A stretch of 64,000 nt of DNA from assembly GCF_046119375.1 (NCBI RefSeq), contig NW_027362767.1:262260001-262324000 (forward strand), given 5' to 3'. The DNA comes from Phyllobates terribilis (Eukaryota). The position numbers were made by a program, and so were the translations under genes. Below are positions 6,001-56,447 of the stretch, one piece after another. Numbering within the stretch: the stretch's first letter is position 1; each line of letters opens with the position of its first letter. A model generated the notes under the pieces. It was given only the letters and a program-made list of their open reading frames with translations, was not told the DNA's origin and made no database searches.

Positions 6001-9000
6001 ATAGGACTGCATATAGCTATGTGATAGGACTGCATGTACCTATGTGATAGGACTGCATGTATGTGATAGGACTGCAGTATACCTATGTGATAGGACTGCC
6101 TATAGCTATGTGATAGGACTGCAATATACCTATGTGATAGGACTGCATATACCTATGTGATAGGACTGCATGTACCTATGTGATAGGACTGCATATAGCT
6201 ATGTGATAGGACTGCATATAGCTATGTGATAGGACTGCATATAGCTATGTGATAGGACTGCATATAGCTATGTGATAGGACTGTATATAGCGATGTGATA
6301 GGACTGCATATACCTATGTGATAGGACTGCATATACCTATGTGATAGGACTGCATATACCTATGTGATAGGACTGCATATACCTATGTGATAGGACTGCA
6401 TGTACCTATGTGATAGGACTGCATATAGCTATGTGATAGGACTGCATATAGCTATGTGATAGGACTGCATATAGCTATGTGATAGGACTGCATATAGCTA
6501 TGTGATAGGACTGTATATAGCGATGTGATAGGACTGCATATACCTATGTGATAGGACTGCATATACCTATGTGATAGGACTGCATAATAGCTATGTGATA
6601 GGACTGCATGTACCTATGTGATAGGACTGCATATACCTATGTGATAGGACTGCATATAGCTATGTGATAGGACTGCATATACCTATGTGATAGGACTGCA
6701 TATACCTATGTGATAGGACTGCATATACCTATGTGATAGGACTGCATGTACCTATGTGATAGGACTGCATATACCTATGTGATAGGACTGCATATAGCTA
6801 TGTGATAGGACTGCATGTACCTATGTGATAGGACTGCATATAGCTATGTGATAGGACTGCATGTACCTATGTGATAGGACTGCATATAGCTATGTGATAG
6901 GACTGCATGTACCTATGTGATAGGACTGCATATACCTATGTGATAGGACTGCATGTACCTATGTGATAGGACTGCATATACCTATGTGATAGGACTGCAT
7001 ATAGCTATGTGATAGGACTGCATATAGCCTATGTGATAGGACTGCATATACCTATGTGATAGGACTGCATGTACCTATGTGATAGGACTGCATATACCTA
7101 TGTGATAGGACTGCATGTACCTATGTGATAGGACTGCATATACCTATGTGATAGGACTGCATATAGCTATGTGATAGGACTGCATATACCTATGTGATAG
7201 GACTGCATATAGCTATGTGATAGGACTGCATGTACCTATGTGATAGGACTGCATATACCTATGTGATAGGACTGCATATACCTATGTGATAGGACTGCAT
7301 ATACCTATGTGATAGGACTGCATATAGCTATGTGATAGGACTGCATATACCTATGTGATAGGACTGCATATAGCTATGTGATAGGACTGCATATAGCTAT
7401 GTGATAGGACTGCATATAGCTATGTGATAGGACTGCATATAGCTATGTGATAGGACTGCATATACCTATGTGATAGGACTGCATATACCTATGTGATAGG
7501 ACTGCATATACTTATGTGATAGGACTGCATATACCTATGTGATAGGACTGCATATGCCTATGTGATAGGACTGCATATGCCTATGTGATAGGACTGCATA
7601 TAGCTATGTGATAGGACTGCATATACCTATGTGATAGGACTGCATATAGCTATGTGATAGGACTGCATATGCCTATGTGATAGGACTGCATATGCCTATG
7701 TGATAGGACTGCATATAGCTATGTGATAGGACTGCATATAGCTATGTGATAGGACTGCATGTACCTATGTGATAGGACTGCATATACCTATGTGATAGGA
7801 CTGCATATACCTATGTGATAGGACTGCATATACCTATGTGATAGGACTGCATATACCTATGTGATAGGACTGCATGTACCTATGTGATAGGACTGCATAT
7901 AGCTATGTGATAGGACTGCATATAGCTATGTGATAGGACTGCATATAGCTATGTGATAGGACTGCATATAGCTATGTGATAGGACTGTATATAGCGATGT
8001 GATAGGACTGCATATACCTATGTGATAGGACTGCATATACCTATGTGATAGGACTGCATGTACCTATGTGATAGGACTGCATATACCTATGTGATAGGAC
8101 TGCATATAGCTATGTGATAGGACTGCATATACCTATGTGATAGGACTGCATATAGCTATGTGATAGGACTGCATATACCTATGTGATAGGACTGCATATA
8201 CCTATGTGATAGGACTGCATGTACCTATGTGATAGGACTGCATATACCTATGTGATAGGACTGCATATAGCTATGTGATAGGACTGCATGTACCTATGTG
8301 ATAGGACTGCATATACCTATGTGATAGGACTGCATGTACCTATGTGATAGGACTGCATATAGCTATGTGATAGGACTGCATATACCTATGTGATAGGACT
8401 GCATATACCTATGTGATAGGACTGCATATAGCTATGTGATAGGACTGCATATGCCTATGTGATAGGACTGCATATGCCTATGTGATAGGACTGCATATAG
8501 CTATGTGATAGGACTGCATATAGCTATGTGATAGGACTGCATGTACCTATGTGATAGGACTGCATATACCTATGTGATAGGACTGCATATACCTATGTGA
8601 TAGGACTGCATATACCTATGTGATAGGACTGCATATACCTATGTGATAGGACTGCATGTACCTATGTGATAGGACTGCATATAGCTATGTGATAGGACTG
8701 CATATAGCTATGTGATAGGACTGCATATAGCTATGTGATAGGACTGCATATAGCTATGTGATAGGACTGTATATAGCGATGTGATAGGACTGCATATACC
8801 TATGTGATAGGACTGCATATACCTATGTGATAGGACTGCATGTACCTATGTGATAGGACTGCATATACCTATGTGATAGGACTGCATATAGCTATGTGAT
8901 AGGACTGCATATACCTATGTGATAGGACTGCATATACCTATGTGATAGGACTGCATGTACCTATGTGATAGGACTGCATATACCTATGTGATAGGACTGC

Positions 9001-10699
9001 ATATAGCTATGTGATAGGACTGCATGTACCTATGTGATAGGACTGCATATACCTATGTGATAGGACTGCATGTACCTATGTGATAGGACTGCATATAGCT
9101 ATGTGATAGGACTGCATGTACCTATGTGATAGGACTGCATATACCTATGTGATAGGACTGCATGTACCTATGTGATAGGACTGCATATACCTATGTGATA
9201 GGACTGCATATAGCTATGTGATAGGACTGCATATAGCTATGTGATAGGACTGCATGTACCTATGTGATAGGACTGCATGTACCTATGTGATAGGACTGCA
9301 TATACCTATGTGATAGGACTGCATGTACCTATGTGATAGGACTGCATATACCTATGTGATAGGACTGCATATACCTATGTGATAGGACTGCATATAGCTA
9401 TGTGATAGGACTGCATATACCTATGTGATAGGACTGCATATAGCTATGTGATAGGACTGCATGTACCTATGTGATAGGACTGCATATACCTATGTGATAG
9501 GACTGCATATAGCTATGTGATAGGACTGCATGTACCTATGTGATAGGACTGCATATACCTATGTGATAGGACTGCATATACCTATGTGATAGGACTGCAT
9601 ATACCTATGTGATAGGACTGCATATAGCTATGTGATAGGACTGCATATAGCTATGTGATAGGACTGCATATAGCTATGTGATAGGACTGCATATAGCTAT
9701 GTGATAGGACTGCATGTACCTATGTGATAGGACTGCATATACCTATGTGATAGGACTGCATATACCTATGTGATAGGACTGCATATACCTATGTGATAGG
9801 ACTGCATGTACCTATGTGATAGGACTGCATATACCTATGTGATAGGACTGCATATACCTATGTGATAGGACTGCATATACCTATGTGATAGGACTGCATA
9901 TAGCTATGTGATAGGACTGCATATAGCTATGTGATAGGACTGCATATATCTATGTGATAGGACTGCATATACCTATGTGATAGGACTGCATGTACCTATG
10001 TGATAGGACTGCATATACCTATGTGATAGGACTGCATATAGCTATGTGATAGGACTGCATATACCTATGTGATAGGACTGCATATAGCTATGTGATAGGA
10101 CTGCATATAGCTATGTGATAGGACTGCATATAGCTATGTGATAGGACTGCATATACCTATGTGATAGGACTGCATATAGCTATGTGATAGGACTGCATAT
10201 AGCTATGTGATAGGACCGCATATGCCTATGTGATAGGACTGCATATAGCTATGTGATAGGACTGCATATAGCTATGTGATAGGACTGCATGTACCTATGT
10301 GATAGGACTGCATATACCTATGTGATAGGACTGCATATACCTATGTGATAGGACTGCATATACCTATGTGATAGGACTGCATATAGCTATGTGATAGGAC
10401 TGCATATACCTATGTGATAGGACTGCATATAGCTATGTGATAGGACTGCATATAGCTATGTGATAGGACTGCATATACCTATGTGATAGGACTGCATGTA
10501 CCTATGTGATAGGACTGCATATAGCTATGTGATAGGACTGCATGTACCTATGTGATAGGACTGCATGTACCTATGTGATAGGACTGCATATACCTATGTG
10601 ATAGGACTGCATGTACCTATGTGATAGGACTGCATATACCTATGTGATAGGACTGCATATACCTATGTGATAGGACTGCATATACCTATGTGATAGGAC
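1..10699. repeat. 23-bp tandem satellite (GGACTGCATATA[G/C]CTATGTGATA), ~465 copies; runs off the left edge of the window
   Basis: GGACTGC recurs at 1, 24, 47 and so on up to ~10699. Variation is concentrated in the ATATAG/ATATAC/ATGTAC/ATATGC segment. Confidence 0.98.
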
Positions 10700-12662: not shown

Positions 12663-12874
12663 CTGCAGAAGACATAACAGAAATGATCGCAACGTCTGGC
12701 TCATACACAGAGAACATGACAGCTAGTCAATGTGGTCATGGTGAAGGCCATTTGCATGGCAGTGTCATGTGACCACTGTATGGAGTTATTATTCAGACAC
12801 CGAATGGCGGTATTATGAGGCCACCGGATAGAAGTATTGTGCTTGCACTAGATGGCACCGAATGATAGTGTGTT

Positions 12875-14666
12875 ATGTGGACGCTGGATGGCAGTGGTAT
12901 ATGGTCACTAGATGGTAGTCTTATGTGGGCACTGGTCAGCAGTGGTATGTGGGCGCTGGATAGCAGTGGTATATGGTCACTAGATGGTAGTCTTATGTGG
13001 GCACTGGTCAGCAGTGGTATGTGGGCGCTGGATAGCAGTGGTATATGGTCACTAGATGGTAGTCTTATGTGGGCACTGGTCAGCAGTGGTATGTGGGCGC
13101 TGGATAGCAGTGGTATATGGTCACTAGATGGTAGTCTTATGTGGGCACTGGTCAGCAGTGGTATGTGGGCGCTGGATAGCAGTGGTATATGGTCACTAGA
13201 TGGTAGTCTTATGTGGGCACTGGTCAGCAGTGGTATGTGGGCGCTGGATAGCACTGGTATATGGTCACTAGATGGTAGTCTTATGTGGGCCCTGGTCAGC
13301 AGTGGTATGTGGGCGCTGGATAGCAGTGGTATATGGTCACTAGATGGTAGTCTTATGTGGGCCCTGGTCAGCAGTGGTATGCGGGCGCTGGATAGCAGTG
13401 GTATATGGTCACTAGATGGTAGTCTTATGTGGGCCCTGGTCAGCAGTGGTATGCGGGCGCTGGATAGCAGTGGTATATGGTCACTAGATGGTAGTCTTAT
13501 GTGGGCCCTGGTCAGCAGTGGTATGTGGGCGCTGGATAGCAGTGGTATATGGTCACTAGATGGTAGTCTTATGTGGGCACTGGTCAGCAGTGGTATGTGG
13601 GCGCTGGATAGCAGTGGTATATGGTCACTAGATGGTAGTCTTATGTGGGCACTGGTCAGCAGTGGTATGTGGGCGCTGGATAGCAGTGGTATATAGTCAC
13701 TAGATGGTAGTCTTATGTGGGCACTGGTCAGCAGTGGTATGTGGGCGCTGGATAGCAGTGGTATATGGTCACTAGATGGTAGTCTTATGTGGGCACTGGT
13801 CAGCAGTGGTATGTGGGCGCTGGATAGCAGTGGTATATGGTCACTAGATGGTAGTCTTATGTGGGCACTGGTCAGCAGTGGTATGTGGGCGCTGGATAGC
13901 AGTGGTATATGGTCACTAGATGGTAGTCTTATGTGGGCCCTGGTCAGCAGTGGTATGCGGGCGCTGGATAGCAGTGGTATATGGTCACTAGATGGTAGTC
14001 TTATGTGGGCCCTGGTCAGCAGTGGTATGTGGGCGCTGGATAGCAGTGGTATATGGTCACTAGATGGTAGTCTTATGTGGGCACTGGTCAGCAGTGGTAT
14101 GTGGGCGCTGGATAGCAGTGGTATATGGTCACTAGATGGTAGTCTTATGTGGGCACTGGTCAGCAGTGGTATGTGGGCGCTGGATAGCAGTGGTATATGG
14201 TCACTAGATGGTAGTCTTATGTGGGCAGCAGTGGTATGAGGGCGCTGGATAGCAGTGGTATATGGTCACTAGATGGTAGTCTTATGTGGGCACTGGTCAG
14301 CAGTGGTATGTGGGCGCTGGATAGCAGTGGTATATGGTCACTAGATGGTAGTCTTATGTGGGCACTGGTCAGCAGTGGTATGTGGGCGCTGGATAGCAGT
14401 GGTATATGGTCACTAGATGGTAGTCTTATGTGGGCAGCAGTGGTATGAGGGCGCTGGATAGCAGTGGTATATGGTCACTAGATGGTAGTCTTATGTGGGC
14501 ACTGGTCAGCAGTGGTATGTGGGCGCTGGATAGCAGTGGTATATGGTCACTAGATGGTAGTGTTATGTGGGCACTAGTCAGCAGTGGTATGAAAGAGCTG
14601 GATAGCAGTGGTATATGGTCACTAGATGGTAGTCTTATGTGGGCACTGGTCAGCAGTGGTATGTGA
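12875..14666. repeat. 72-bp higher-order tandem array (3 x 24-bp subunits), ~25 copies
   Basis: 24-aa period MWALVSSGMWALDSSGIWSLDGSL in the ORF track. Subunits align to the 24-bp monomer. Confidence 0.95.
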
Positions 14667-15049: not shown

Positions 15050-18000
15050 AAGACAGTAGTATGTAAGCACAGTATGGCAGTATTATGTGAGTTCTGGGTG
15101 ACTGTACTTTGCGGATATTGGATGACAGCAGTATGTAAGCAATGTATAGATCTATTATGTAAGCACAGTATGGCAGTATTATGTGAGTTCTGGGTGACTG
15201 TACTTTGGGGATATTGTGTGACAGCAGTATGTAAGCAATGTATAGATCTATTATGTAAGCACAGTATGGCAGTATTATGTGAGCTCTGGGTGACTGTACT
15301 TTGTGGATATTGTGTGACAGCAGTATGTAAGCAATGTATAGATCTATTATGTAAGCACAGTATGGCAGTATTATGTGAGTTCTGGGTGACTGTACTTTGC
15401 GGATATTGGATGACAGCAGTATGTAAGCAATGTATAGATCTATTATGTAAGCACAGTATGGCAGTATTATGTGAGTTCTGGGTGACTGTACTTTGGGGAT
15501 ATTGTGTGACAGCAGTATGTAAGCAATGTATAGATCTATTATGTAAGCACAGTATGGCAGTATTATGTGAGCTCTGGGTGACTGTACTTTGTGGATATTG
15601 TGTGACAGCAGTATGTAAGCAATGTATAGATCTATTATGTAAGCACAGTATGGCAGTATTATGTGAGCTCTGGGTGACTGTACTTTGCGGATATTGTGTG
15701 ACAGCAGTATGTAAGCGATGTATAGATCTATTATGTAAGCACAGTATGGCAGTATTATGTGAGCTCTGGGTGACTGTACTTTGTGGATATTGTGTGACAG
15801 CAGTATGTAAGCAATGTATAGATCTATTATGTAAGCACAGTATGGCAGTATTATGTGAGCTCTGGGTGACTGTACTTTGTGGATATTGTGTGACAGCAGT
15901 ATGTAAGCAATGTATAGATCTATTATGTAAGCACAGTATGGCAGTATTATGTGAGTTCTGGGTGACTGTACTTTGCGGATATTGTATGACAGCAGTATGT
16001 AAGCAATGTATAGATCTATTATGTAAGCACAGCATGGCAGTATTATGTGAGCTCTGGGTGACTGTACTTTGTGGATATTGTGTGACAGCAGTATGTAAGC
16101 AATGTATAGATCTATTATGTAAGCACAGTATGGCAGTATTATGTGAGCTCTGGGTGACTGTACTTTGTGGATATTGTGTGACAGCAGTATGTAAGCAATG
16201 TATAGATCTATTATGTAAGCACAGTATGGCAGTATTATGTGAGCTCTGGGTGACTGTACTTTGTGGATATTGTGTGACAGCAGTATGTAAGCAATGTATA
16301 GATCTATTATGTAAGCACAGTATGGCAGTATTATGTGAGTTCTGGGTGACTGTACTTTGCGGATATTGTGTGACAGCAGTATGTAAGCGATGTATAGATC
16401 TATTATGTAAGCACAGTATGGCAGTATTATGTGAGCTCTGGGTGACTGTACTTTGTGGATATTGTGTGACAGCAGTATGTAAGCAATGTATAGATCTATT
16501 ATGTAAGCACAGTATGGCAGTATTATGTGAGCTCTGGGTGACTGTACTTTGTGGATATTGTGTGACAGCAGTATGTAAGCAATGTATAGATCTATTATGT
16601 AAGCACAGTATGGCAGTATTATGTGAGTTCTGGGTGACTGTACTTTGCGGATATTGTGTGACAGCAGTATGTAAGCGATGTATAGATCTATTATGTAAGC
16701 ACAGTATGGCAGTATTATGTGAGCTCTGGGTGACTGTACTTTGTGGATATTGTGTGACAGCAGTATGTAAGCAATGTATAGATCTATTATGTAAGCACAG
16801 CATGGCAGTATTGTGTGAGTTCTGGGTGACTGTACTTTGGGGATATTGTGTGACAGCAGTATGTAAGCAATGTATAGATCTATTATGTAAGCACAGTATG
16901 GCAGTATTATGTGAGCTCTGGGTGACTGTACTTTGTGGATATTGTGTGACAGCAGTATGTAAGCAATGTATAGATTTATTATGTAAGCACAGTATGGCAG
17001 TATTATGTGAGTTCTGGGTGACTGTACTTTGCGGATATTGTATGACAGCAGTATGTAAGCAATGTATAGATCTATTATGTAAGCACAGTATGGCAGTATT
17101 ATGTGAGTTCTGGGTGACTGTACTTTGGGGATATTGGATGACAGCAGTATGTAAGCAATGTATAGATCTATTATGTAAGCACAGTATGGCAGTATTATCT
17201 GAGTTCTGGGTGACTGTACTTTGGGGATATTGGATGACAGCAGTATGTAAGCAATGTATAGATCTATTATGTAAGCACAGCATGGCAGTATTATGTGAGT
17301 TCTGGGTGACTGTACTTTGTGGATATTGTATGACAGCAGTATGTAAGCAATGTATAGATCTATTATGTAAGCACAGTATGGCAGTATTATGTGAGCTCTG
17401 GGTGACTGTACTTTGTGGATATTGTATGACAGCAGTATGTAAGCAATGTATAGATCTATTATGTAAGCACAGTATGGCAGTATTATGTGAGTTCTGGGTG
17501 ACTGTACTTTGCGGATATTGGATGACAGCAGTATGTAAGCAATGTATAGATCTATTATGTAAGCACAGTATGGCAGTATTATGTGAGTTCTGGGTGACTG
17601 TACTTTGGGGATATTGGATGACAGCAGTATGTAAGCAATGTATAGATCTATTATGTAAGCACAGCATGGCAGTATTATGTGAGCTCTGGGTGACTGTACT
17701 TTGTGGATATTGTATGACAGCAGTATGTAAGCAATGTATAGATCTATTATGTAAGCACAGTATGGCAGTATTATGTGAGTTCTGGGTGACTGTACTTTGG
17801 GGATATTGGATGACAGCAGTATGTAAGCAATGTATAGATCTATTATGTAAGCACAGTATGGCAGTATTATGTGAGTTCTGGGTGACTGTACTTTGCGGAT
17901 ATTGTATGACAGCAGTATGTAAGCAATGTATAGATCTATTATGTAAGCACAGTATGGCAGTATTATGTGAGTTCTGGGTGACTGTACTTTGGGGATATTG

Positions 18001-18625
18001 GATGACAGCAGTATGTAAGCAATGTATAGATCTATTATGTAAGCACAGTATGGCAGTATTATGTGAGTTCTGGGTGACTGTACTTTGGGGATATTGGATG
18101 ACAGCAGTATGTAAGCAATGTATAGATCTATTATGTAAGCACAGTATGGCAGTATTATGTGAGCTCTGGGTGACTGTACTTTGTGGATATTGTATGACAG
18201 CAGTATGTAAGCAATGTATAGATCTATTATGTAAGAACAGTATGGCAGTATTATGTGAGTTCTGGGTGACTGTACTTTGGGGATATTGGATGACAGCAGT
18301 ATGTAAGCAATGTATAGATCTATTATGTAAGCACAGCATGGCAGTATTATGTGAGCTCTGGGTGACTGTACTTTGTGGATATTGTATGACAGCAGTATGT
18401 AAGCAATGTATAGATCTATTATGTAAGCACAGTATGGCAGTATTATGTGAGCTCTGGGTGACTGTACTTTGCGGATATTGTATGACAGCAGTATGTAAGC
18501 AATGTATAGATCTATTATGTAAGCACAGTATGGCAGTATTATGTGAGTTCTGGGTGACTGTACTTTGGGGATATTGGATGACAGCAGTATGTAAGCAATG
18601 TATAGATCTATTATGTAAGCACACT
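15050..18625. repeat. 96-bp higher-order tandem array (4 x 24-bp subunits), ~37 copies
   Basis: 32-aa period in both the 1211-aa and 1238-aa pseudo-ORFs. The first subunit closely matches the 24-bp monomer. Confidence 0.96.
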
Positions 18626-18669
18626 ATGGCATTATCATATGGGCAAGCAGAAAAATCCAGCTCACAGAT

Positions 18670-20165: not shown

Positions 20166-20187
20166 CTGAAAAAATAAATATAAGTGT

Positions 20188-23100
20188 TATAATACTGTCC
20201 CTATGTACAAGAATATAACTACTATAATACTGCCGCCTATGTACAAGAATATAACTACTATAATACTGCTCCAATGTACAAGAAATATAACTACTATTAT
20301 ACTGCTCCCTATATATAAGAATATAACAACTATAATTCTGCCCCCTATGTACAAGAATATAACTACTATAATACTGCCCCTATGTACAAGAATATAACTA
20401 CTATAATACTGCCCCTATGTACAAGAATAAAACTGCTATAATACTGCCTTATATATACAAGAATATAACTACAATACTGCCCCCTATGTAGAAGAATATA
20501 ACTACTATAATACTGCCCCCTATGTAGAAGAATATAACTACTATAATTCTGCTCCTATGTACAAGAATATAACTACTATAATACTGCCCCTATGTACAAG
20601 AATATAACTAATATAATACTGCCCCCCTATGTACAAGAATATAACTACTATAATACTGCCCCTTATATACAAGAATATAACTACTATAATACTGCTCCCT
20701 ATGTACAAGAATCTAACTACTATAATACTGCCCACTATGTACAAGAATATAACTACTATAATACTGCCCCCTATGTGCAAGAATATCGCTACTATAATTC
20801 TGCTCCTATGTACAAGAATATAACTACTATAATACTGCCCCCTACGTAGAAGAATATAACTACTATAATACTACCCCTATGTACAAGAATATAACTACTA
20901 TAATTCTGCTCCTATGTACAAGAATATAACTACTATAATACTGCCCCTATGTACAAGAATATAACTAATATAATACTGCCCCCCTATGTACAAGAATATA
21001 ACTACTATAATACTGCCCCTTATATACAAGAATATAACTACTATAATACTGCTCCCTATGTACAAGAATCTAACTACTATAATACTGCTCCCTATGTACA
21101 AGAATATAACTACTATAATACTGCCGCCTATGTACAAGAATATAACTACTATAATACTGCTCCAATGTACAAGAAATATAACTACTATTATACTGCTCCC
21201 TATATATAAGAATATAACAACTATAATTCTGCCCCCTATGTACAAGAATATAACTACTATAATACTGCCCCTATGTACAAGAATATAACTACTATAATAC
21301 TGCCCCTATGTACAAGAATAAAACTGCTATAATACTGCCTTATATATACAAGAATATAACTACAATACTGCCCCCTATGTAGAAGAATATAACTACTATA
21401 ATACTGCCCCCTATGTAGAAGAATATAACTACTATAATACTGCCCCCTACGTAGAAGAATATAACTACTATAATACTACCCCTATGTACAAGAATATAAC
21501 TACTATAATTCTGCTCCTATGTACAAGAATATAACTACTATAATACTGCCCCTATGTACAAGAATATAACTAATATAATACTGCCCCCCTATGTACAAGA
21601 ATATAACTACTATAATACTGCCCCTTATATACAAGAATATAACTACTATAATACTGCTCCCTATGTACAAGAATCTAACTACTATAATACTGCCCACTAT
21701 GTACAAGAATATAACTACTATAATACTGCCCCCTATGTGCAAGAATATCGCTACTATAATACTGCCCCTATGTACAAGAATATAACTACTATAATTCTGC
21801 TCCTATGTACAAGAATATAACTACTATAATACTGCCCCTATGTACAAGAATATAATTACTATAATACTGCCCCCTATGTACAAGAATATAACTACTATGA
21901 TACTACTCCTATGTACAATATAACTACTATAATACTGTCCCTATGTACAAGAAAATAAATACTATAATACTGCTCCTATGTACAATATAACTACTATAAT
22001 ACTGCCCCTATGTACAAGAAAATAAATACTATGATACTACTCCTATGTACAAGACTATAACTACTATAATACTGCCCCCTATGTACAAAAATATAACTAC
22101 TATAATACTGCCCCTATGTACAAGAATATAACTGCTATAATACTGCCCTCTATGTACAAGAATATAACTACTATAATACTGCCCCTATGTACAAGATTAT
22201 AACTACTATAATACTGCTCCTATGTACAAGAATATAACTACTATAATACTGCCCCTATGTACAAGAATATAACTACTATATTACTACCCTTACGTACAAG
22301 ATTATAACTACTATAATACTGCTCCTATGTACAAGAATATAACTACTATAATTCTGCTCCTATGTACAAGAATATAACTACTATAATACTGCCCCTATGT
22401 ACAAGAATATAACTACTATAATACTGCCCCTATGTACAAGAATATAACTACTATATTACTACCCTTATGTACAAGATTATAACTACTATAATACTGATCC
22501 TATGTACAAGAATATAACTACTATAATACTGCCCCTATGTACAAGAATATAACTACTATATTACTACCCTTATGTACAAAATTATAACTACTATAATACT
22601 GCTCCTATGTACAAGAATATAACTACTATAATACTGTCCCCAATGTTCAAGAATATAACTACTATAATTCTGCTCCTATGTACAAGAATATAACTACTAT
22701 AATACTGCCCCTATGTACAAGAATATAACTACTATAATACTGCCCCCTATGTACAAGAATATAACTACCATAATTCTGCTCCTATGTACAAGAATGTAAC
22801 TACTATAATACTGCTCCGATGTACAATATAACTACTATAATACTGCCCCTATGTACAAGAAAATAAATACTATGATACTACTCCTATGTACAAGACTATA
22901 ACTACTATAATACTGTCCCCTATGTACAAGAATATAACTACTATAATACTGCCCTCTATGTACAAGAATATAACTACTATAATACTGCCCCCTATGTACA
23001 AGAATATAACTACCATAATTCTGCTCCTATGTACAAGAATGTAACTACTATAATACTGCTTCTATGTACAATATAACTGCTATAATACTGACCCTATGTA

Positions 23101-24304
23101 GAAGAATATAACTCCTATAATACTGCTCCTATATACAAGAATATAACTACTATAATACTGCCCCTTATGTACAAGAATATAACTACTATAATACTGCTCC
23201 TATGTACAATATAACTACTATAATACTGCCCCCTATGTACAAGAATATAACTACTATAATTCTGCTCCTATGTACAAGAATGTAACTACTATAATACTGC
23301 TCCTATGTACAAGAATATAACTAATATAATACTGCCCCATATGTACAAGAATATAACTACTATAATACTGCTCCTATGTACAATATAACTACTATAATAC
23401 TGTCCCTATGTGCAAGAATATAACTACTATAATACTGCCCTCCATGTACAAGAATATAACTACTATAATACTGCCCCTTATGTACAAGAATATAACTACT
23501 ATAATACTGCTCCTATGTACAATATAACTATCTATAATACTGCCCCCTATGTACAAGAATGTAACTACTATAATACTGCCCCCTATGTACAAGAATATAA
23601 CTACTATAATACTGCTCCTATGTACAAGAATATAACTACTATAATACTGCCCCTATGTACAAGAGTATAACTACTATAATACTGCCCCTATGTACAAGAA
23701 TATTAACTAATATAATACTGCCCCCCTATGTACAAGAATATAACTACTATAATACTGCCCCCTATGTGCAAAAATATAACTACTATAATACTGCCCCTAT
23801 GTACAAGAATATAACAGCTATAATACCGCCTTATATATACAAGAATATAACTACTATAATACTGCCCCCTATGTACAAGAATATAACTACTATAATACTG
23901 CCCCCTATGTACAAGAATATAACTACTATAATACTGCCCCTATGTACAAGAATATAACAGCTATAATACTGCCTTATATATACAAGAATATAACTACTAT
24001 AATACTGCCCCCTATGTACAAGAATATAACTACTATAATACTGCCCCCTATGTACAAGAATATAACTACCATAATTCTGCTCCTATGTACAAGAATGTAA
24101 CTACTATAATACTGCTTCTATGTACAATATAACTGCTATAATACTGCCCCTATGTACAAGAATATAACTACTATAATACTGCCCCTTATGTACAAGAATA
24201 TAACTACTATAATACTGCTCCTATGTCCAAGAATATAACTTCTATAATACTGCCCCCTATGTACAAGAATATAACTACTATAATACTGCCCCTTATGTAC
24301 AAGA
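20188..24304. repeat. 35-36-bp dispersed minisatellite (TACTGCCCCCTATGTACAAGAATATAACTACTATAA), left arm
   Basis: Direct reading. Internal duplications of 357 and 962 bp appear as identical ORF-track peptides (20592/20949, 20541/21503). Confidence 0.97.
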
Positions 24305-24384
24305 ATCATAGAATCATAGAATGGTAGAGTTGGAAGGGACCTCCTGGGTCATCTGGTCCAACCCCCTGCTCAAAGCAGGATTCA

Positions 24385-27174
24385 CTAGATCATCTCAGAC
24401 AGATGTCTGTCCAGCCTCTGTTTGAAGACGTCCATTGAAGGGGAACTCACCACCTCTCGTGGCAGCCTGTTCCACTCATTAATCACCCTAACTGTCAAAA
24501 AGTTTTTTCTAATATCTAATCTGTGTCTCCTCCCATTTAGTTTCATCCCGTTGCTTCTAGTCTTTCCCTGTGCAAATGAGAATAAAGATGATCCTTCTAC
24601 AATGTGACAGCCCTTGACATATTTGTAGACAGCTATTAAGTCTCCTCTCAGTCTTCTTTTTTGCAAGCTAAACATTCCCAAATCCTGCAACCGTTCCTCA
24701 TAGGACATGGTTTGCAGACTAGTCACCATTCTGGTCGCTCTTCTCTGAACTTGTTCCAGTTTGTCTATGTCTTTTTTAAAATGTGGTGCCCAAAACTGTA
24801 CACAGTATTCCAGATGAGGTCTGACCAAAGAGGAGTAAAGACCGATAATGACTTCACGTGATCTAGACTGTATGCTTCTGTTAATACATCCCAGAATTGT
24901 ATTTGCCTTTTTTGCTGCTGCATCACACTGTTGACTCATGTTCAGTCTATGATCTATTAGTATACCCAAGTCTTTTTCACATGTACTGTTGCTTAGCTCT
25001 ATTCCTCCCATTCTGTATATGCTTTTTTCATTTTTATTGCCCAGATGTAGTACTTTGCATTTTTCCCTGTTAAAAACCATTCTGTTGGTTGCTGCCCACT
25101 GCTCCAGTTTATTTAGGTCTTTTTGAATCCTCTCTCTCTCTTCTCTAGTATTAGCTATCCCTCCTAGCTTTGTGTCATCAGCAAATTTAATCAGTTTACC
25201 CTCAATTCCTTCATCTAAATCATTGATGAAGATGTTGAACAATACAGGTCCCAGGACAGAGCCCTGTGGTATCCCACTTGAGACATTCATCCAGCTGGAT
25301 GTGAAGCCATTTACAACCACCCTTTGAGTCCGATCACTAAGCCAGTTATGAATCCACCTAACAGTTGCCTGGTCCATTGCATACTTGGTCATTTTTTCAA
25401 TAAGGATGGTGTGAGATACTTTGTCAAATGCTTTGCTGAAGTCAAGATATACTATATCTACAGCATTTCCCTGATCCACCCAGTCAGTGATTCTGTCATA
25501 GAAGGAAATTAAGTTAGTCTGACATGACTTGTTAGTTACAAACCCATGCTGACTCTGGTTAATCACTTCATTCTTATCCAGGTACTTACATACATGATGT
25601 TTAATAATTTGTTCAAAGATCTTTCCTGGTATAGAAGTCAGACTCACCGGCCTATAGTTCCCTGGGTCCACCTTCTTCCCCTTTTTGAAGATAGGAACAA
25701 CATTTGCTCTTCTCCAGTCTTCTGGGACTTCTCCTGTTCTCCAAGAATTTTCAAAGATTATGGAGAGTGGTTCTAAAATTTCTTCTACGATCTCCTTCAG
25801 TACTCTGGGGTGTAATTCATCTGGACCTGGAGACTTGAACTCATTTATGTTAGCTAAATATTCCCTCACAATCTTTCTGTTTACAGATAACTTGGATTCT
25901 TCTATTCCTTTAAAAGGACAGTGAAAATCAGTTGATGTTACATTTTCTTTCTGAGAGAAAACAGATGCAAAATAGGAATTAAAAAGTTCGGCCTTCTCAA
26001 CATCCTCTCTTACCATTTCTCCATTTTCATCCTGTAAAAATCCTATAGCATCTTTGACTTTTCTTTTACTTTTGACATACCCCCAAAATCCTTTTTTATT
26101 GCTTTTGACATCTCTTGCAAGCCTTAATTCATTGTCAGCTTTAGCTAACCTGATACGTGCCCTACAGGATCTGCAGACTGCATTATAATCTTCTTTAGAT
26201 ATGCCTCCCTCTTTCCATTTAATAAACATTTCTTTCTTTCTTTTTAGCATGTGTTTAAGTTCTGTGTTCATCCATCCTGGTTTCCTTAAATGCTTCCCAT
26301 TCTTCCTACTTTTCGGGATTGTTAACGATTGTGCTTTGAGAATCTCATTTTTAAAAATTTCCCATCCTTCCTGGACATTTTTGTCCTTAAGGACATCCAG
26401 CCATTGGATCCCTCCTATTCTCTTTCTGAGTCTCTTAAAATCTGCCTTTCTAAAATCTAACCTTGAAGTTTGAGTCTTCACATGTCTTCCTCCTCTAGTT
26501 ATCCAAAATTCTATAATAGCATGATCGCTGCCTCCTAGGGTCCCAGCCACCTTTACCTCCTCAACCATTTCCTCCCTGTTTATAAGGATTAGATCCAAAG
26601 TAGCAGATCCCCTTGTTTTCTCCCCTACCTTTTGGAAGATAAAGTTGTCAGCAAGAGAGGATAAGAATTTGCTTGACCTGTTAGTTTTACTTGAGAGAGA
26701 TTCCCAACAAATGTCTGGATAGTTGAAATCTCCCATGACCACTACATCATATTTTTTGGAGAACTTGGTCATTTGATACATAAAGAGTTCATCCATATCT
26801 TCAGCTTGCCCAGGTGGCCTGTAGTAAATGCCTACAATGGTGTCCTTTCCGTTGTTCTCTCCTTGTATTCTTACCCAAACAGTTTCCACAGAACTCCCAG
26901 TCTCTGAAGCTTCAATCTCTGTGCAGATATACGCTTTTCTAACATACAATGCGACACCTCCTCCTCGTTTATCAATTCTGTTTCTTGCAAATAAGTTGTA
27001 TCCTTTTAGCCTTTTATTCCAATCATGTGTATCGTCCCACCAAGTCTCAGTGATTCCAATGACATCATATTCCTTTTCCTGCATTAGTAGTTCCAATTCT
27101 CCTTGTTTGTTGCCCATGCTTTGTGCATTTGTATAAAAACATTTTAGTTTGTGATTGGTTTCTCTTCCTCCCAT
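24385..27174 (-). CDS. CR1 ORF2: APE endonuclease + reverse transcriptase, 929 aa
   Basis: Endonuclease motifs YTNAQS, GITETWW, GDFNYP, SDH. RT motifs PGPDELHP, YLDFSKAFD, GIPQGSVLGP, FADD. Confidence 0.95.
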   Translation of the reverse strand: MGGRETNHKLKCFYTNAQSMGNKQGELELLMQEKEYDVIGITETWWDDTHDWNKRLKGYNLFARNRIDKRGGGVALYVRKAYICTEIEASETGSSVETVWVRIQGENNGKDTIVGIYYRPPGQAEDMDELFMYQMTKFSKKYDVVVMGDFNYPDICWESLSSKTNRSSKFLSSLADNFIFQKVGEKTRGSATLDLILINREEMVEEVKVAGTLGGSDHAIIEFWITRGGRHVKTQTSRLDFRKADFKRLRKRIGGIQWLDVLKDKNVQEGWEIFKNEILKAQSLTIPKSRKNGKHLRKPGWMNTELKHMLKRKKEMFIKWKEGGISKEDYNAVCRSCRARIRLAKADNELRLARDVKSNKKGFWGYVKSKRKVKDAIGFLQDENGEMVREDVEKAELFNSYFASVFSQKENVTSTDFHCPFKGIEESKLSVNRKIVREYLANINEFKSPGPDELHPRVLKEIVEEILEPLSIIFENSWRTGEVPEDWRRANVVPIFKKGKKVDPGNYRPVSLTSIPGKIFEQIIKHHVCKYLDKNEVINQSQHGFVTNKSCQTNLISFYDRITDWVDQGNAVDIVYLDFSKAFDKVSHTILIEKMTKYAMDQATVRWIHNWLSDRTQRVVVNGFTSSWMNVSSGIPQGSVLGPVLFNIFINDLDEGIEGKLIKFADDTKLGGIANTREERERIQKDLNKLEQWAATNRMVFNREKCKVLHLGNKNEKSIYRMGGIELSNSTCEKDLGILIDHRLNMSQQCDAAAKKANTILGCINRSIQSRSREVIIGLYSSLVRPHLEYCVQFWAPHFKKDIDKLEQVQRRATRMVTSLQTMSYEERLQDLGMFSLQKRRLRGDLIAVYKYVKGCHIVEGSSLFSFAQGKTRSNGMKLNGRRHRLDIRKNFLTVRVINEWNRLPREVVSSPSMDVFKQRLDRHLSEMI

Positions 27175-27296
27175 ATTTTTATTATTTAGATTTTTTTGTC
27201 TTTGTTCTTCCTTTCCACTTCCAGTAGCAGAGATCTCAATAGTATTTGTCAGCTGTATGGCTTTTTCTGGCCTTTTGCTTCCCTTCCCACATTGTT

Positions 27297-28259
27297 CTAG
27301 TTTAAAGCTCTCCTGATGAGTGTAGCAAGGCGACTTCCAAATACATGTTTTCCAGTCTTCGTAAGGTGCACCCCATCTCTAGCAAGTAGTCCATCGTATA
27401 GGTAATTCATCCCGTGATCCAGAAATCCAAATCCTTGTTGACGGCACCATCGACGTAGCCAGTTGTTCACCTGTAGAATCTTATTCCACCTCATTGTTCC
27501 ATGGTCATCCACTGGGAGGATGGATGAGAAGACCACCTGCGCTCCCAATTCTTTCACTTTCTTGCCTAAGTCTTCAAAGTCACTGCAGATGGTTTCCAGG
27601 TCCTTTCTTGTGGTGTCATTTGTCCCCACATGTATTAGCAGGAATGGGTAGTGATCTGTAGGTCTGAAGAGTCTTGATATCCTGTCAGACACATCATTAA
27701 TTTTTGCTCCTGGAAGACAGCACATTTCTCTTGAGGTTATGTCTGGTCTGCAGATAGCGGCCTCTGTTCCTCTTAACAGGGAATCCCCCATGACCACCAC
27801 TCTTCGTTTTTTCTTCACAACATTCTTCTTTCTCCATCCAGGAGGATTCTGAGGGCTTACAAGGTTATTCATTGCTGGCAAAGTCTTATCTTGCTGTATT
27901 TCTTCAAGGTTCTCCTGCGTGAGAGCCTGGTACTGGTTCCTGAGCAGTATGGGTGCTGACTGCCTCTCGATCCTCCTGCTTCTGTGGGTCACATGCTTCC
28001 ATTCCTCTGTTTCGTCAGGTGCAGTTCGAATTTCTTCTCTTTCTGAATCATGAAGAGATAATTCTGCTCTGTCTAAGAACTCTTCACCTTCCTTAATGAT
28101 TTTCAAGGTAGTTAACCTCTCTTCTAGATTTCGCAACTTTTCCTCCAACAGGGACACAAGCTTGCATTTCTGGCATGTGAAGTTTGGCTTTTCCACTGGC
28201 AAGTCTGTGAACATGTAGCAGGATATGCAGCTCACCAAATGGCTCCTGGACTCTTCCAT
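27297..28259 (-). CDS. CR1 ORF1: N-terminal CxxC...CxxC zinc finger, coiled coil, SGNH esterase (likely start at MEESRSH, 28259)
   Basis: CISC...CQKC; GDS, GTND and DGVH esterase blocks; ends RALN*. Confidence 0.92.
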   Translation of the reverse strand: MEESRSHLVSCISCYMFTDLPVEKPNFTCQKCKLVSLLEEKLRNLEERLTTLKIIKEGEEFLDRAELSLHDSEREEIRTAPDETEEWKHVTHRSRRIERQSAPILLRNQYQALTQENLEEIQQDKTLPAMNNLVSPQNPPGWRKKNVVKKKRRVVVMGDSLLRGTEAAICRPDITSREMCCLPGAKINDVSDRISRLFRPTDHYPFLLIHVGTNDTTRKDLETICSDFEDLGKKVKELGAQVVFSSILPVDDHGTMRWNKILQVNNWLRRWCRQQGFGFLDHGMNYLYDGLLARDGVHLTKTGKHVFGSRLATLIRRALN

Positions 28260-28325
28260 GTTCTTACTGTTAATGTTCTGAAAACAGTGAAAAAAGCTTA
28301 AAAAAAAAAGCTTCAACCGGCGCGC

Positions 28326-28580
28326 GGTTTACCAATGTCCTCTTTTCAGCTCCAACAGCCAAAATCCAGTGTTCTTTGAGCTCGCGGAGACTCTTCACTT
28401 ACCCCAAAATGCAGTGGAAATATGCAAATTATCTCCTCAGGACTCCTCCCCTGGTTTACCGATGTCCTCTTTTCAGCTCCAACAGCCAAAATCCAGTGTT
28501 CTTTGAGCTCGCGGAGACTCTTCACTTACCCCAAAATGCAGTGGAAATATGCAAATTATCTCCTCAGGACTCCTCCCCTG
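28326..28580. repeat. two tandem 127-bp monomers forming the CR1-A 5' end
   Basis: 28326-28452 and 28453-28579 are identical except one base (caatg/cgatg). Confidence 0.95.
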
Positions 28581-31402
28581 CTCCTATGTACAAGAATATA
28601 ACTACTAGAATACTGCCCCTTATACACAAGAATAAAACTACTATAATACTGCTCCCTATGTACAAGAATATAACTACTATAATACTGCCTCCTATGTACA
28701 AGAATATAACTACTATAATACTGCCCTCTATGTACAAGAATATAACTAATACTGCCCCCTATGTACAAGAATATAACTGCTATAATACTGCCCTCTGTGT
28801 ACAAGAATATAACTACTATAATACTGCCCCCTATGTACAAGAATATAACTACTATAATACTGCCCTCTATGTACAAGAATATAACTAATACTGCCCCCTA
28901 TGTACAAGAATATAACTACTATAATACTGCCCTCTATGTACAAGAATATAACTACTATAATACTGCCCATGTACAAGAATATAACGACTATAATTATGCT
29001 CCTATGTACAAGAATATAACTACTATAACACTGCCCCAATGTACAAGAATATAACTACTATAATACTGCCCCTATGTACATGAATATAACTACTATAATA
29101 CTGCCCCCTGTGTACAAGAATATAACTACTATAATACTACACCTAAGTACAAGAATATAACTACTAGAATACTGCCCCTTATACACAAGAATAAAACTAC
29201 TATAATACTGCCCCCTATGTACAAGAATATAACTACTATAATACTGCCTCCTATGTACAAGAATATAACTACTATAATACTGCCCTCTATGTACAAGAAT
29301 ATAACTAATACTGCCCCCTATGTACAAGAATATAACTGCTATAATACTGCCCTCTGTGTACAAGAATATAACTACTATAATACTGCCCCCTATGTACAAG
29401 AATATAACTACTATAATACTGCCCTCTATGTACAAGAATATAACTAATACTGCCCCCTATGTACAAGAATATAACTACTATAATACTGCCCTCTATGTAC
29501 AAGAATATAACTACTATAATACTGCCCATGTACAAGAATATAACGACTATAATTATGCTCCTATGTACAAGAATATAACTACTATAACACTGCCCCAATG
29601 TACAAGAATATAACTACTATAATACTGCCCCTATGTACATGAATATAACTACTATAATACTGCCCCCTGTGTACAAGAATATAACTACTATGATACTACA
29701 CCTAAGTACAAGAATATAACTACTATAATACTGCCCCCTATGTACAAGAATATAACTACTATAATACTGCCCCTATGTACAAGAATATAACGACTATAAT
29801 TATGCTCCTATGTACAAGAATATAACTACTATAACACTGCCCCAATGTACAAGAATATAACTACTATAATACTGCCCCTATGTACATGAATATAACTACT
29901 ATAATACTGCCCCCTATGTACAAGAATATAACTACTATGATACTACGCCTAAGTACAAGAATATAACTAGTATAATACTGCCCCCTATGTACAAGAATAT
30001 AACTACTATAATACTGACCCTATGTACAAGAATATAACTACTATAATACTGCTCCTATGTACAATATAACTGCTATAATACTGCCCCGTATGTACAAGAA
30101 TATAACTACTATAATACTGCCCCTATGTACAAGAATATAACTACTATAATACTGCTCCCTATGTACAAGAATATAACTACTATAATACTGCCCCCTATGT
30201 ACAAGAATATAACTACTATAATACTGCCCCTATGTACAAGAATATAACTACTATAATACTGCCCCTATGTACAAGAATATAACTACTATAATACTGCCCC
30301 TATGTACAAGAATATAACTACTATAATACTGCTCCCTATGTACAAGAATATAACTACTATAATACTGCCCCTATGTACAAGAATATAACTACTATAATAC
30401 TGCTCCCTATGTACAAGAATATAACTGCTATAATACTGCCCTCTATGTACAAGAATATAACTACTATAATACTGTCCCCTATGTACAAGAATATAACTAC
30501 TATAATACTGCCCTCTATGTACAAGAATATAACTAATACTGCCCCCTATGTACAAGAATATAACTACTATAATACTGCCCTCTATGTACAAGAATATAAC
30601 TACTATAATACTGCCCATGTACAAGAATATAACGACTATAATTATGCTCCTATGTACAAGAATATAACTACTATAACAATGCCCCAATGTACAAGAATAT
30701 AACTACTATAATACTGCCCCTATGTACATGAATATAACTACTATAATACTGCCCCCTATGTACAAGAATATAACTACTATGATACTACGCCTAAGTACAA
30801 GAATATAACTAGTATAATACTGCCCCCTATGTACAAGAATATAACTACTATAATACTGCCCCTATGTACAAGAATATAACGACTATAATTATGCTCCTAT
30901 GTACAAGAATATAACTACTATAACACTGCCCCAATGTACAAGAATATAACTACTATAATACTGCCCCTATGTACATGAATATAACTACTATAATACTGCC
31001 CCCTATGTACAAGAATATAACTACTATGATACTACGCCTAAGTACAAGAATATAACTAGTATAATACTGCCCCCTATGTACAAGAATATAACTACTATAA
31101 TACTGACCCTATGTACAAGAATATAACTACTATAATACTGCTCCTATGTACAAGAAAATAACTACTATAATACTGCCCCTATGTACAAGAATATAACTAC
31201 TATAATACTGCCCCCCTATGTACAAGAATATAACTACTATAATACTGCCCCCCTATGTACAAGAATATAACTACTATAATACTGCCCCTATGTACAAGAA
31301 TATAACTACTATAATACTGCCCCCTATGTACAAGAATATAACTACTATAATACTGCCCCCTATGTACAAGAATATAACTACTATAATACTGCCCCTATGT
31401 AC
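28581..31402. repeat. 35-36-bp dispersed minisatellite, right arm
   Basis: Same unit as 20188-24304. A 559-bp internal duplication is visible (28746/29305, 28761/29320). Confidence 0.97.
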
Positions 31403-31478
31403 ACTGTTCTCTCGCTGTTTTGCAGGATGCATGCTGTTGCAGTGTATGTATACCGCTTTATCACATGTGGTCACTCAC

Positions 31479-38195: not shown

Positions 38196-39824
38196 CAGTG
38201 GGTACGGAAAGTATTCAGACCCCTTTAAATGTTTCACTCTTTGTTTCATTGCAGCCATTTGGAAAATTCTAAAAAGTTCATTTGTTTTTCTCATTAATGT
38301 ACACTGTGCACCCCATCTTGACTGAAAAAAAACAGAACTGTAGAAATTTTTGCAAAATTTATTAAAAAAGAAAAACTGAAACATCACATGGTCATAAGTA
38401 TTCAGACCCTTTGCTCAGACACTCATATTTAAGTCACATGCTGTCCATTTCCTTGTGATCCTCCTTGAGATGGTTCTACTCCTTCTTTGGAGTCCAGCTG
38501 TGTTTAATTAAACTGATAGGACTTGATTTGGAAAGGCACACACCTGTCTATATAAGACCTCACAGCTCACAGCGCATGTCAGACCAAATGAGAATCATGA
38601 GCTCAAAGGAACTGCCCAAGGAGCTCAGAGACAGAATTGTGGCAAGGCACAGATCTGGCCAAGGTTATAAGAGAATTTCTGCATTACTCAAGGTTCCTAA
38701 GAGCACAGTGGCCTCCATAATCCTTAAATGGAAAAAGTTTGGGACCACCAGAAGTCTTCCTACACCTGGCCGTCCAGCCAAACTGAGGAATCGTGGGAGA
38801 AGAGCCTTAGTGAGAGAGGTAAAGAAGAAACCCAAGATCACTGTGGCTGAGCTCCAGAGATGCAGTAGGGAGATGGGAGAAAGTTCCACAAAGTCAACTA
38901 TCACTGTAGCCCTCCACCAGTCAAGCCTTTATGGCAGAGTGGCCCAACGGAAGTCTCTCCTCATTGCAAGACATATGAAAGCCTGCATAGAGTTTGCTCA
39001 AAAACACATGAAGGACTCCCAGACTATGAGAAATAAGATTCTCTGGTCTGATGAGACGAAGATAGAATTATTACCAAAAAGTTCTAAGTGGTATGTGTGG
39101 AGAAAACCAGGCACAGCTCATCACCTGCTCAATACAATCCCAACAGTGAAACATGGTGGTGGCAGCATCATGCTATGGGGGTGTTTTTCTGCTGCAGGGA
39201 CAGGACGACTGGTTGCACTTGAAGGAAACATGAATGTGGCCAAGTACAGAGATATCCTGGATGAAAACCTCTTCCAGAGTGCTCTGGACCTCATGCTTGG
39301 CCAAAGGTTCACCTTCCAACAAGACAATGACCCTAAGCACACAGCTAAAATAACAAAGGAGTGGCTTGAAAACAACTGTGACCATTCTTGACTGGCCCAG
39401 TCAGAGCCCTGACCTAAACCCAATTGAGCATCTCTGGAGAGACCTGAAAATGGCTGTCCACCAACGTTCCAACCTGATGGAACTGGAGAGGATCTGCAAG
39501 GAAGAATGGCAGAGGATCCCCAAATCCAGGTGTGATAAACTTTTTGCATCATTCCCAAGAAGGCTCATGGCTGTACTAGCTCAAAAGGGGCTTCTACTCA
39601 ATACTGAGCAAAGGGTCTGAATACTTATGACCATGTGATATTTCAGGTGGTTTTTATTAATAAATTTGCAAAAATGTCTACATTTCTGTTTTTTTTCAGT
39701 TAAGATGGGGTGCAGAGTGTACATCAATGAGAAAAGAAATGAACTTTTTAGAATTTACCAAATGGCTGCAATGAAACAAAGAGTGAAAAATTTAAAGGGG
39801 TCTGAATACTTTCTGTACCCACTG
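38196..39824 (+). mobile_element. full-length Tc1-like IR/DR transposon, decayed transposase
   Basis: TA target duplications at 38194-95 and 39825-26. TIR CAGTGGGTACGGAAAGTATTCAGACCC, with inner direct repeats at ~38397 and ~39610. DD34E motifs [17 protein letters not shown]. Frameshifts at ~39378 and ~39590. Confidence 0.96.
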
Positions 39825-43944: not shown

Positions 43945-44060
43945 CAGCGGTAGAGGGGCGTGGTAATGAGGGGGCGGGCTATAGGCCGGTTTCAGTATAC
44001 ATGTGCGGGGTGACACGTGAGTGAGGTCACAGGACGGAGCTGCGCTGCGGGGATCGGTCG
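43945..44060 (+). promoter_or_regulatory. alad: ALAD housekeeping promoter and non-coding first exon
   Basis: GC boxes GGGGCGTGG and GGGGGCGGG (~43955-43980), E-box CACGTG (44014), first donor TCG|GTGAGT at 44061. Confidence 0.6.
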
Positions 44061-47811: not shown

Positions 47812-54140
<6,329 letters not shown>

Positions 54141-56125: not shown

Positions 56126-56447
56126 AACTTGGGATTATTCGAACAGTGAATATTGTCATTGTATTGGACTATAAACTCTGATCGGAATCCGAGACATTAT
56201 AAATCTTGCTCCAGTTGACAACTGGGTCAATTTTGGCATTGCCATGATGTCTGCTGCGCGTGCCGGCTTCTCTACTCCCTCTTCCATATGAGACGTCTGG
56301 AGCCAGGAGTTGGTCTGTTTGGCTGTGATATCCTGGCTTTGCTCAGTACCATGCAGTAAAGCTAATGCCCTCCCTTGTGTATACAGTGGGACGTGTTGCG
56401 GTATACAGCTTGTATGAATATACTGTTCTTTATTTTCGCCTTTGCAG

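Follow-up and report, generated by a model that had tools for sequence, protein, structure and literature searches.

How does a retrotransposon make its reverse transcriptase when the open reading frame (ORF) that encodes it is out of frame with the one before? For long interspersed nuclear elements (LINEs) the mode of ORF2 translation has been described as an open question (PMC3894237). Here, it is raised by a 64,000-nucleotide stretch of the Phyllobates terribilis genome (10.6 Gb; assembly GCF_046119375.1, contig NW_027362767.1, positions 262,260,001 to 262,324,000), referred to below as the window. It harbors a full-length, intact CR1 LINE of a family that we call A (CR1-A, 24302–28575), which resides in a satellite with a 35/36-bp unit; this element and all parts of CR1 elements described below are on the minus strand. 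The sequence data make it quite probable that some ribosomes undergo programmed −1 frameshifting at a slippery heptamer, U_UUA_AAC, to yield a 1291-residue ORF1–ORF2 fusion, i.e., a Gag-Pol-like product composed of esterase, endonuclease and reverse transcriptase. Esterase-type CR1 LINEs are the dominant retrotransposons in many vertebrates, and frameshifting would be a new route for a LINE-class element to make its reverse transcriptase.

The junction between ORF1 and ORF2

ORF1 (27297–28259) encodes 320 residues with a Cys-pair N-terminus, an SGNH/GDSL esterase and the C-terminus RRALN. It ends GCT TTA AAC TAG, such that the heptamer TTTAAAC (27300–27306) is phased T_TTA_AAC and directly adjoins the TAG stop codon (27297–27299). 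ORF2 (24385–27300), which encodes an apurinic/apyrimidinic-type (APE) endonuclease and the reverse transcriptase, is found in the −1 frame and comprises 971 residues from the shift site or 929 from its ATG (27172–27174). Between the heptamer and this ATG, the −1 frame has 42 codons without a stop, and it stays open onward until ORF2 terminates at 24385; in the other direction, 26 codons upstream of the heptamer are open as well. An initial annotation of the window had claimed both the in-phase heptamer (27306–27300) directly before TAG and the 42-codon stop-free stretch into the ATG at 27174, and both claims are confirmed. The linker up to the TNA motif of the endonuclease (27133–27300) is a stop-free stretch of 56 codons, and the computed product of a slip at the heptamer is 320 + 971 = 1291 residues.

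Three properties of a programmed −1 frameshift site are found here, i.e., an X_XXY_YYZ heptamer in zero-frame phase, an open −1 frame that leads into a functional ORF, and nucleotide conservation beyond what the protein needs. Most ribosomes would terminate at the ORF1 stop and release the 320-residue protein. In a minority, tRNA-Leu and tRNA-Asn would re-pair one base back, on UUU and AAA, and the shifted ribosomes would read L-E-Q-C-G-K and then a flexible linker to complete the 1291-residue product. The least certain step is the pause; the adjacent stop, through slow termination, and an unpaired G-tract downstream are our best guess for its cause.

A second CR1 in the window, CR1-B (47812–53524, ORF1 start to tail), carries T_TTA_AAC followed by TAG at 52598–52607, and the −1 frame is open from there into the endonuclease. 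This copy is broken by a one-base loss in ORF1 near 52885 and by a Tc1 insertion in ORF2; its G-run downstream of the stop (52578–52593) contains 16 G, compared to 9 G in most retrieved copies. TTTAAAC is followed by TAG at two of its eight occurrences in the window, which are the CR1-A and CR1-B sites only. The initial annotation had described CR1-B as an unrelated element with the same arrangement. The arrangement is indeed the same, but the elements are related: they are 37% (ORF1 esterase) and 47% (ORF2) identical. Because CR1-B is a homologous family, the common site reflects conservation rather than convergence. The Tc1/Sleeping Beauty-like transposon that splits the CR1-B ORF2 is found at 49410–50900, and another is located at 38459–39391. 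The opposite nesting, a CR1-B copy inside a Tc1, was seen duplicated on unplaced contigs (L308 and L309).

Conservation of the site across CR1 lineages

A metagenome search for CR1 ORF1, performed blind to the heptamer, identified 62 loci, of which 19 extend to the end of ORF1. The ends are mostly tblastn projections; those of L041, L049, L055, L067 and L073 were positioned by motif owing to nearby indels. The heptamer is TTTAAAC in 17 loci, TTTACGA in L042 and TTAAAAC in L073, and a stop codon follows TTTAAAC directly in 15 of the 17. The identity of the ORF1 stop is not fixed, i.e., TAG, TAA and TGA all occur. Codon use was analyzed in 21 ORF1 tails, composed of 16 of the 19 metagenome loci (L041, L055 and L067 were dropped because their frames are broken just upstream) and five frog loci. 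The last Leu codon is TTA in 20/20 and the Asn codon AAC in 20/20 tails, and the preceding codon has T in its third position in 20/21, spanning Ala, Cys, Ser, Thr and Phe. Background use is 25 TTA among 280 Leu codons, 42 AAC among 99 Asn codons and a third-position T frequency of 0.28, which gives a joint value of ~0.011 per independent lineage. Conditioned on one lineage, the chance of finding the site in about five roughly independent lineages is, as a rough estimate, ~1e-8.

These numbers bear on an explanation at the protein level, namely that the esterase needs its terminal L-N-stop, or has inherited it by chance, and that the codons are merely unchanged. It is plausible for the last helix to end with a Leu, and there is one other codon-invariant column: the first Phe of a G-F-G-F motif in ORF1 (~27447–27445 in the window) is TTT in 17/17, reflecting chance or a second signal. 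However, four-fold sites are mostly 10–45% identical between lineages, i.e., near saturation (higher inside groups), the remaining eight conserved Leu columns use 4–6 codons apiece, and non-CR1 esterases terminate elsewhere. In L073 (290–800), a divergent CR1 with 28% identity, ORF1 is five residues longer and the motif has shifted outward with the stop: the heptamer with its one change, the TAG and the G-tract are found at the same spacing. The protein-level explanation is largely refuted and we regard it as exceedingly improbable. The heptamer is a real and ancient feature under nucleotide-level selection.

A set of 120 ORF1 homologs covers frogs, lizards, snakes, turtles, crocodilians, birds and an electric ray, and LN forms the C-terminus of 87. 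Of the remaining 33, two extend to the C-terminus, with SN or LD, and the others look like gene models that are truncated, spliced or fused. LN is preceded by A in 66, T in 9, Y in 4, E, L and F in 2 each, and S and G in 1 each. Only E has no codon that ends with T; as judged from the protein, its codon would permit G_UUA_AAC. A further CR1 ORF1 that ends RRALN is annotated as a Klebsiella protein (P0044) and probably represents host contamination.

Family D of the frog genome carries this same G_TTA_AAC (98 of the first 100 among 1902 matches), which is the only successful deviation found. Represented by, e.g., L142, L259 and L317 in G000 and with ~1900 junction matches, this family has an ORF1 that is 82% identical to that of family A, an ORF2 that is 73–75% identical to that of family B, and an ORF2 and 3′ untranslated region (UTR) of the B/C type. 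Because ORF1 is A-like and ORF2 is B-like, a module swap is indicated in which the heptamer cassette and the frame were retained. Pattern searches for more frog CR1 families yielded noise, non-CR1 esterase elements and, among CR1s, only these four families. The non-CR1 SGNH-esterase elements (L258–L294), which we take to be probably DIRS/Ngaro, are abundant (>12,000 pattern matches, CR1-D included) and have ends of variable length; of those seen, one ends with LN, far beyond the CR1 position.

Overall, 152 distinct junctions of the frog genome include 127 with TTTAAAC TAG and 15 with GTTAAAC TAG. They also bear on the possibility that the signal is not read by the ribosome, i.e., that the polymerase slips and adds a base at TTTAAA, that TAG is a splice acceptor, or that the motif is an internal TATA-like promoter. 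As judged from the sequence, TTTAAA resembles a slippage or TATA-like run and CTAG fits a YAG acceptor. Under cis preference, the lengthened RNA would be the template that is copied back into the genome, but a one-base insertion that fuses the frames is seen in 0/152 junctions. Lineages with TAA or TGA lack the AG of an acceptor, and a promoter would not lock to the codon phase. A non-ribosomal signal is thus very unlikely.

The site extends beyond the frog. Consensus rows in the supplement of PMC13343379 were surveyed over the first 400 characters of each row by a motif search that was read by eye, a survey without a denominator. Rows of 12 species have TTTAAAC at the end of ORF1 with TAG, TAA or TGA after it and, in most cases, a G-tract next: alligator, saltwater crocodile, bearded dragon, bullfrog, coelacanth, bowfin, halosaur (its row bears the label Crack), elephant shark, stingray, sawfish, catshark and dogfish. 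A search of the same rows anchored on the endonuclease gave nine rows, five of them with an ORF1 end: two are perfect, one begins within the motif, one has the heptamer followed by GAA, and one is noisy. The dogfish consensus sequences SquAca_CR1-3 and SquAca_CR1-18 also carry TTTAAAC with TAG or TAA in their apparent 5′ UTR. The part of the PMC4316615 supplement that was searched contained no ORF1/ORF2 junctions.

The reading frame between ORF1 and the endonuclease

The endonuclease motif could be located in 19 of 25 loci examined, and 17 of these 19 have it in the −1 frame. The 17 linkers have 11 different lengths, ranging from 36 to 94 codons, and 13 are stop-free. In 29 copies of the young CR1-A family, the −1 linker is open in 27, interrupted by a stop in one and by an indel in one, i.e., the frequent stops that the initial annotation had named as evidence against frameshifting are not seen. 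The survey of heptamer, phase and −1 frame that it had proposed for CR1s showed all three to be maintained in the lineages compared. The fusion by frameshifting that it had suggested for "this CR1 lineage" is thereby supported, except that the restriction does not hold; the feature is general to esterase-type CR1s.

An in-frame indel of 3 nt, located before the ATG, distinguishes two CR1-A subfamilies. In shuffled sequences the probability of a stop-free linker before the ATG is 0.04, 0.06 and 0.01 for families A, B and C, respectively, using representatives picked for an intact frame. The family C linker is predicted to be disordered by an alignment-based fold (mean pLDDT 68), which was used in place of a single-sequence fold (pLDDT 29). 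A naturally fused ORF1–ORF2 of 1299 residues (L171/L316, G000:C271) was considered as support for a functional fusion and rejected: it is explained by a 5-nt junction deletion in a duplicate of one insertion, and is therefore not evidence for fusion.

Observations that weigh against frameshifting

A number of observations weigh against frameshifting; they relate to the frame itself, to the start codons of ORF2 and to the sequence downstream of the heptamer. Linker stops occur in 4 of the 17 −1-frame loci, and another frame is found in 2 of 19; these loci are read as decay. Out-of-frame junctions amount to 10 of 37 in family B and 25 of 69 in family C, mostly owing to changes in G-run length, in sets that were not de-duplicated. 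Duplication of a single insertion accounts for some of the family B and C copies. This applies to the family C variant with a 6-nt linker change and to the two family B copies whose flanks were compared, and it may extend to further B copies on unplaced contigs. The stops common to L199 and L201 also belong to one dead insertion that was duplicated. If frameshifting is used, a change in G-run length would kill a copy that still bears both ORFs.

Regarding start codons, an in-frame AUG precedes the endonuclease in many families, including CR1-A, in which its context is good (A at −3 and G at +4), and most ORF2 gene models start at an upstream Met, the position of which is variable. In several bird-like families an AUG is found 2 nt past the ORF1 stop, and L051 and three of the shark consensus rows display a UAAUG overlap. 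Furthermore, translation of human L1 ORF2 requires neither an AUG nor a frameshift (PMC5009743, PMC3894237, PMC2881922). These data would fit termination followed by reinitiation, either at a nearby AUG or without one, as is accepted for SART1 and L1; in this case, termination and retention of the 40S subunit would be tuned by the conserved bases, and ORF2p would be a separate protein. An AUG is present at −1-frame codon 2–3 in seven loci (L032, L033, L034, L041, L042, L051 and L063).

There is, however, no conserved ORF2 start codon among CR1s. The AUG wanders from codon 2 to 50 across loci or is missing before the endonuclease, and overlapping or adjacent stop-start arrangements are not conserved, being absent from frog families A, B and C and from L039, L043 and L064, and found in some others. 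In CR1-A, an out-of-frame (+1) AUG (27290–27292), which opens an 18-codon frame, comes before the good-context ATG at 27174. In two older sister insertions, independent of each other, Ile is encoded at the position of the latter and no Met precedes the endonuclease, such that sole reliance on this ATG, raised in the initial annotation as a counter-argument, is not borne out. The first Met of family C comes at residue 48, in the middle of endonuclease strand 1 (residues 44–51) as predicted by the alignment-based fold. As weak evidence, ORF2 gene models of Anolis, Pelodiscus and Alligator start within the endonuclease at MGNK, and those of Xenopus at the strand-1 Met. Reinitiation also leaves unexplained the exact X_XXY_YYZ motif with its known tolerated variant, and the open −1-frame linker upstream of the AUG. 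We therefore consider it an unlikely explanation of the site, noting that it could coexist with frameshifting.

Concerning the downstream sequence, folding revealed no local RNA structure beyond that of shuffled sequences in 21 of 22 cases (z-scores close to zero, best z −2.3), with the G-tract unpaired. Long-range pairing of the G-tract with the 3′ UTR favored the cognate partner in only three of six families; the candidate partners in frog families A–C are non-homologous between families and already paired inside the UTR folds. A stimulatory 3′ stem-loop or pseudoknot is not predicted, by folding that did not model pseudoknots; no C-rich partner is found nearby.

What is conserved is the position of a GGG. 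Of 19 loci, 18, 19 and 19 have G at positions +12, +13 and +14 past the heptamer, respectively, and positions +4 to +10 are variable; in CR1-A, the G-rich tract (27281–27288) has its GGG at these same positions. The codon 11 nt beyond the heptamer is invariably GGG, which points to a constraint on the RNA rather than on the protein. A quadruplex is predicted in 2 of 18 cases (G4Hunter-type score 0.3–1.8). The tract is a candidate for a new type of stimulator, which would act via a bound protein or a G-quadruplex and not via a hairpin or pseudoknot. LINEs need little ORF2p, and a modest slip rate could therefore suffice.

Comparison with known systems

By its heptamer and frame, the CR1 site fits a known kind of frameshift site; it differs in the class of host element and in having no predicted local stimulator. 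U_UUA_AAC is among the most shift-prone heptamers, and the G_UU(A) form is that of equine arteritis virus (PMC5009743). As in retroviral gag-pol and in coronavirus and arterivirus ORF1a/1b, an X_XXY_YYZ motif links a structural or RNA-binding first ORF to a polymerase ORF in the −1 frame (PMC5009743). Unlike in these cassettes, the element is a LINE, the stop adjoins the heptamer, no hairpin or pseudoknot is predicted 5–9 nt downstream, and the predicted fusion contains no protease according to Pfam.

In PRRSV, the nsp2TF frameshift is stimulated by protein: CCCANCUCC, 11 nt 3′ of the site, is bound by nsp1beta and PCBP (PMC5009743). The CR1 GGG resembles it as a short unstructured motif at the equal spacing of 11 nt. 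It differs from CCCANCUCC in being G-rich rather than C-rich; the CR1 shift would be −1 only, and the CR1 binding protein is putative. Among plant viruses, the site of pea enation mosaic virus requires a nearby stop of any identity, and barley yellow dwarf virus as well as red clover necrotic mosaic virus use 4-kb long-range pairing (PMC5009743). The CR1 stop is likewise near the shift site and variable in identity; unlike the plant virus sites, CR1 has no adjacent stem-loop, and long-range pairing with the 3′ UTR is unsupported by covariation. The initial annotation had compared the stop-adjacent heptamer with the barley yellow dwarf and red clover necrotic mosaic type of site; in the part of the review covered, it is the pea enation mosaic virus site for which a stop close by is documented (PMC5009743).

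Among LINEs, CR1 is bicistronic and of the APE type, as are SART1 and human L1, and UAAUG is found in some CR1 families. In SART1 and human L1, ORF2 depends on translation of ORF1 and its protein is separate; the parts of these sources covered mention no slippery heptamer (PMC3894237, PMC2881922, PMC5009743). For Paramecium LINEs, +1 frameshifting or reinitiation has been suggested (PMC5405496). The canonical vertebrate CR1s with an esterase ORF1 described in PMC13343379 are of the same element class and domain layout as CR1-A, and a term search of that paper returned no frameshift, overlap, translation or stop codon. The portion of the 2016 frameshifting review covered contains no CR1 case (PMC5009743), the literature followed from TRE5-A holds no frameshift statement for TRE elements in the parts seen, and in the literature searched, coverage of which does not include the CR1 descriptions from the 1990s and subscription papers, there is no report of CR1 frameshifting.

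If CR1 uses frameshifting, its ORF2p would be delivered covalently on ORF1p in a ratio set by the ribosome, as in retroviruses, and the annotation of CR1 ORF2 as well as the counting of "intact" copies would change. A broader and more speculative proposal, which we hold only tentatively, is that all esterase-type CR1s have for more than 400 million years made their reverse transcriptase solely as an ORF1p fusion, via a structure-free signal composed of the heptamer, the stop and a G-tract read by a trans-acting protein. Such a signal would mirror, in G-rich form, the poly(C)-binding system of arteriviruses, and would be a transposition switch under the control of the host or of the element.

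The CR1-A element and other features of the window

The CR1-A ORF1 matches Pfam Lipase_GDSL_2 (E 1.8e-7, slightly below the curated cut-off), and its homologs in reptiles and birds are named SGNH hydrolase. ORF2 matches Exo_endo_phos and RVT_1, both above cut-off; the endonuclease weakly matches structures of the L1 endonuclease in a profile comparison (E 0.006), and a single-sequence search of the PDB returned no match. The 5′ UTR (28326–28580) contains a 127-bp tandem duplication, and the 3′ UTR (24302–24384) contains a terminal hairpin (24326–24366) and 8-bp tail repeats. A 3′ hairpin with a short tandem tail in place of poly(A) is a feature of CR1 LINEs. CR1-A thus displays the three properties tested for the esterase type, i.e., an ORF1 esterase, an ORF2 with APE endonuclease and reverse transcriptase, and the 3′ hairpin with tandem tail. 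ORF1 has at least 150 near-identical matches elsewhere in the genome, and because the 150 best are 98–100% identical, the family is young. The nearest named relative is a poison frog protein (90% identity), and no relatives were found in viral or prokaryotic sequence collections.

Satellite arrays flank CR1-A at 20177–24306 and 28578–31403. The 35/36-bp unit and the CR1-A tail have ATTCT in common, which suggests that the insertion was primed by microhomology. Further, large tandem arrays are found at 1–10699, 12870–14665, 15060–18635, 44035–45409 and 54149–56129, with units of 23, 72, 96, 35 and 97 bp, respectively, and the long ORFs inside these arrays arise from stop-free repeat units.

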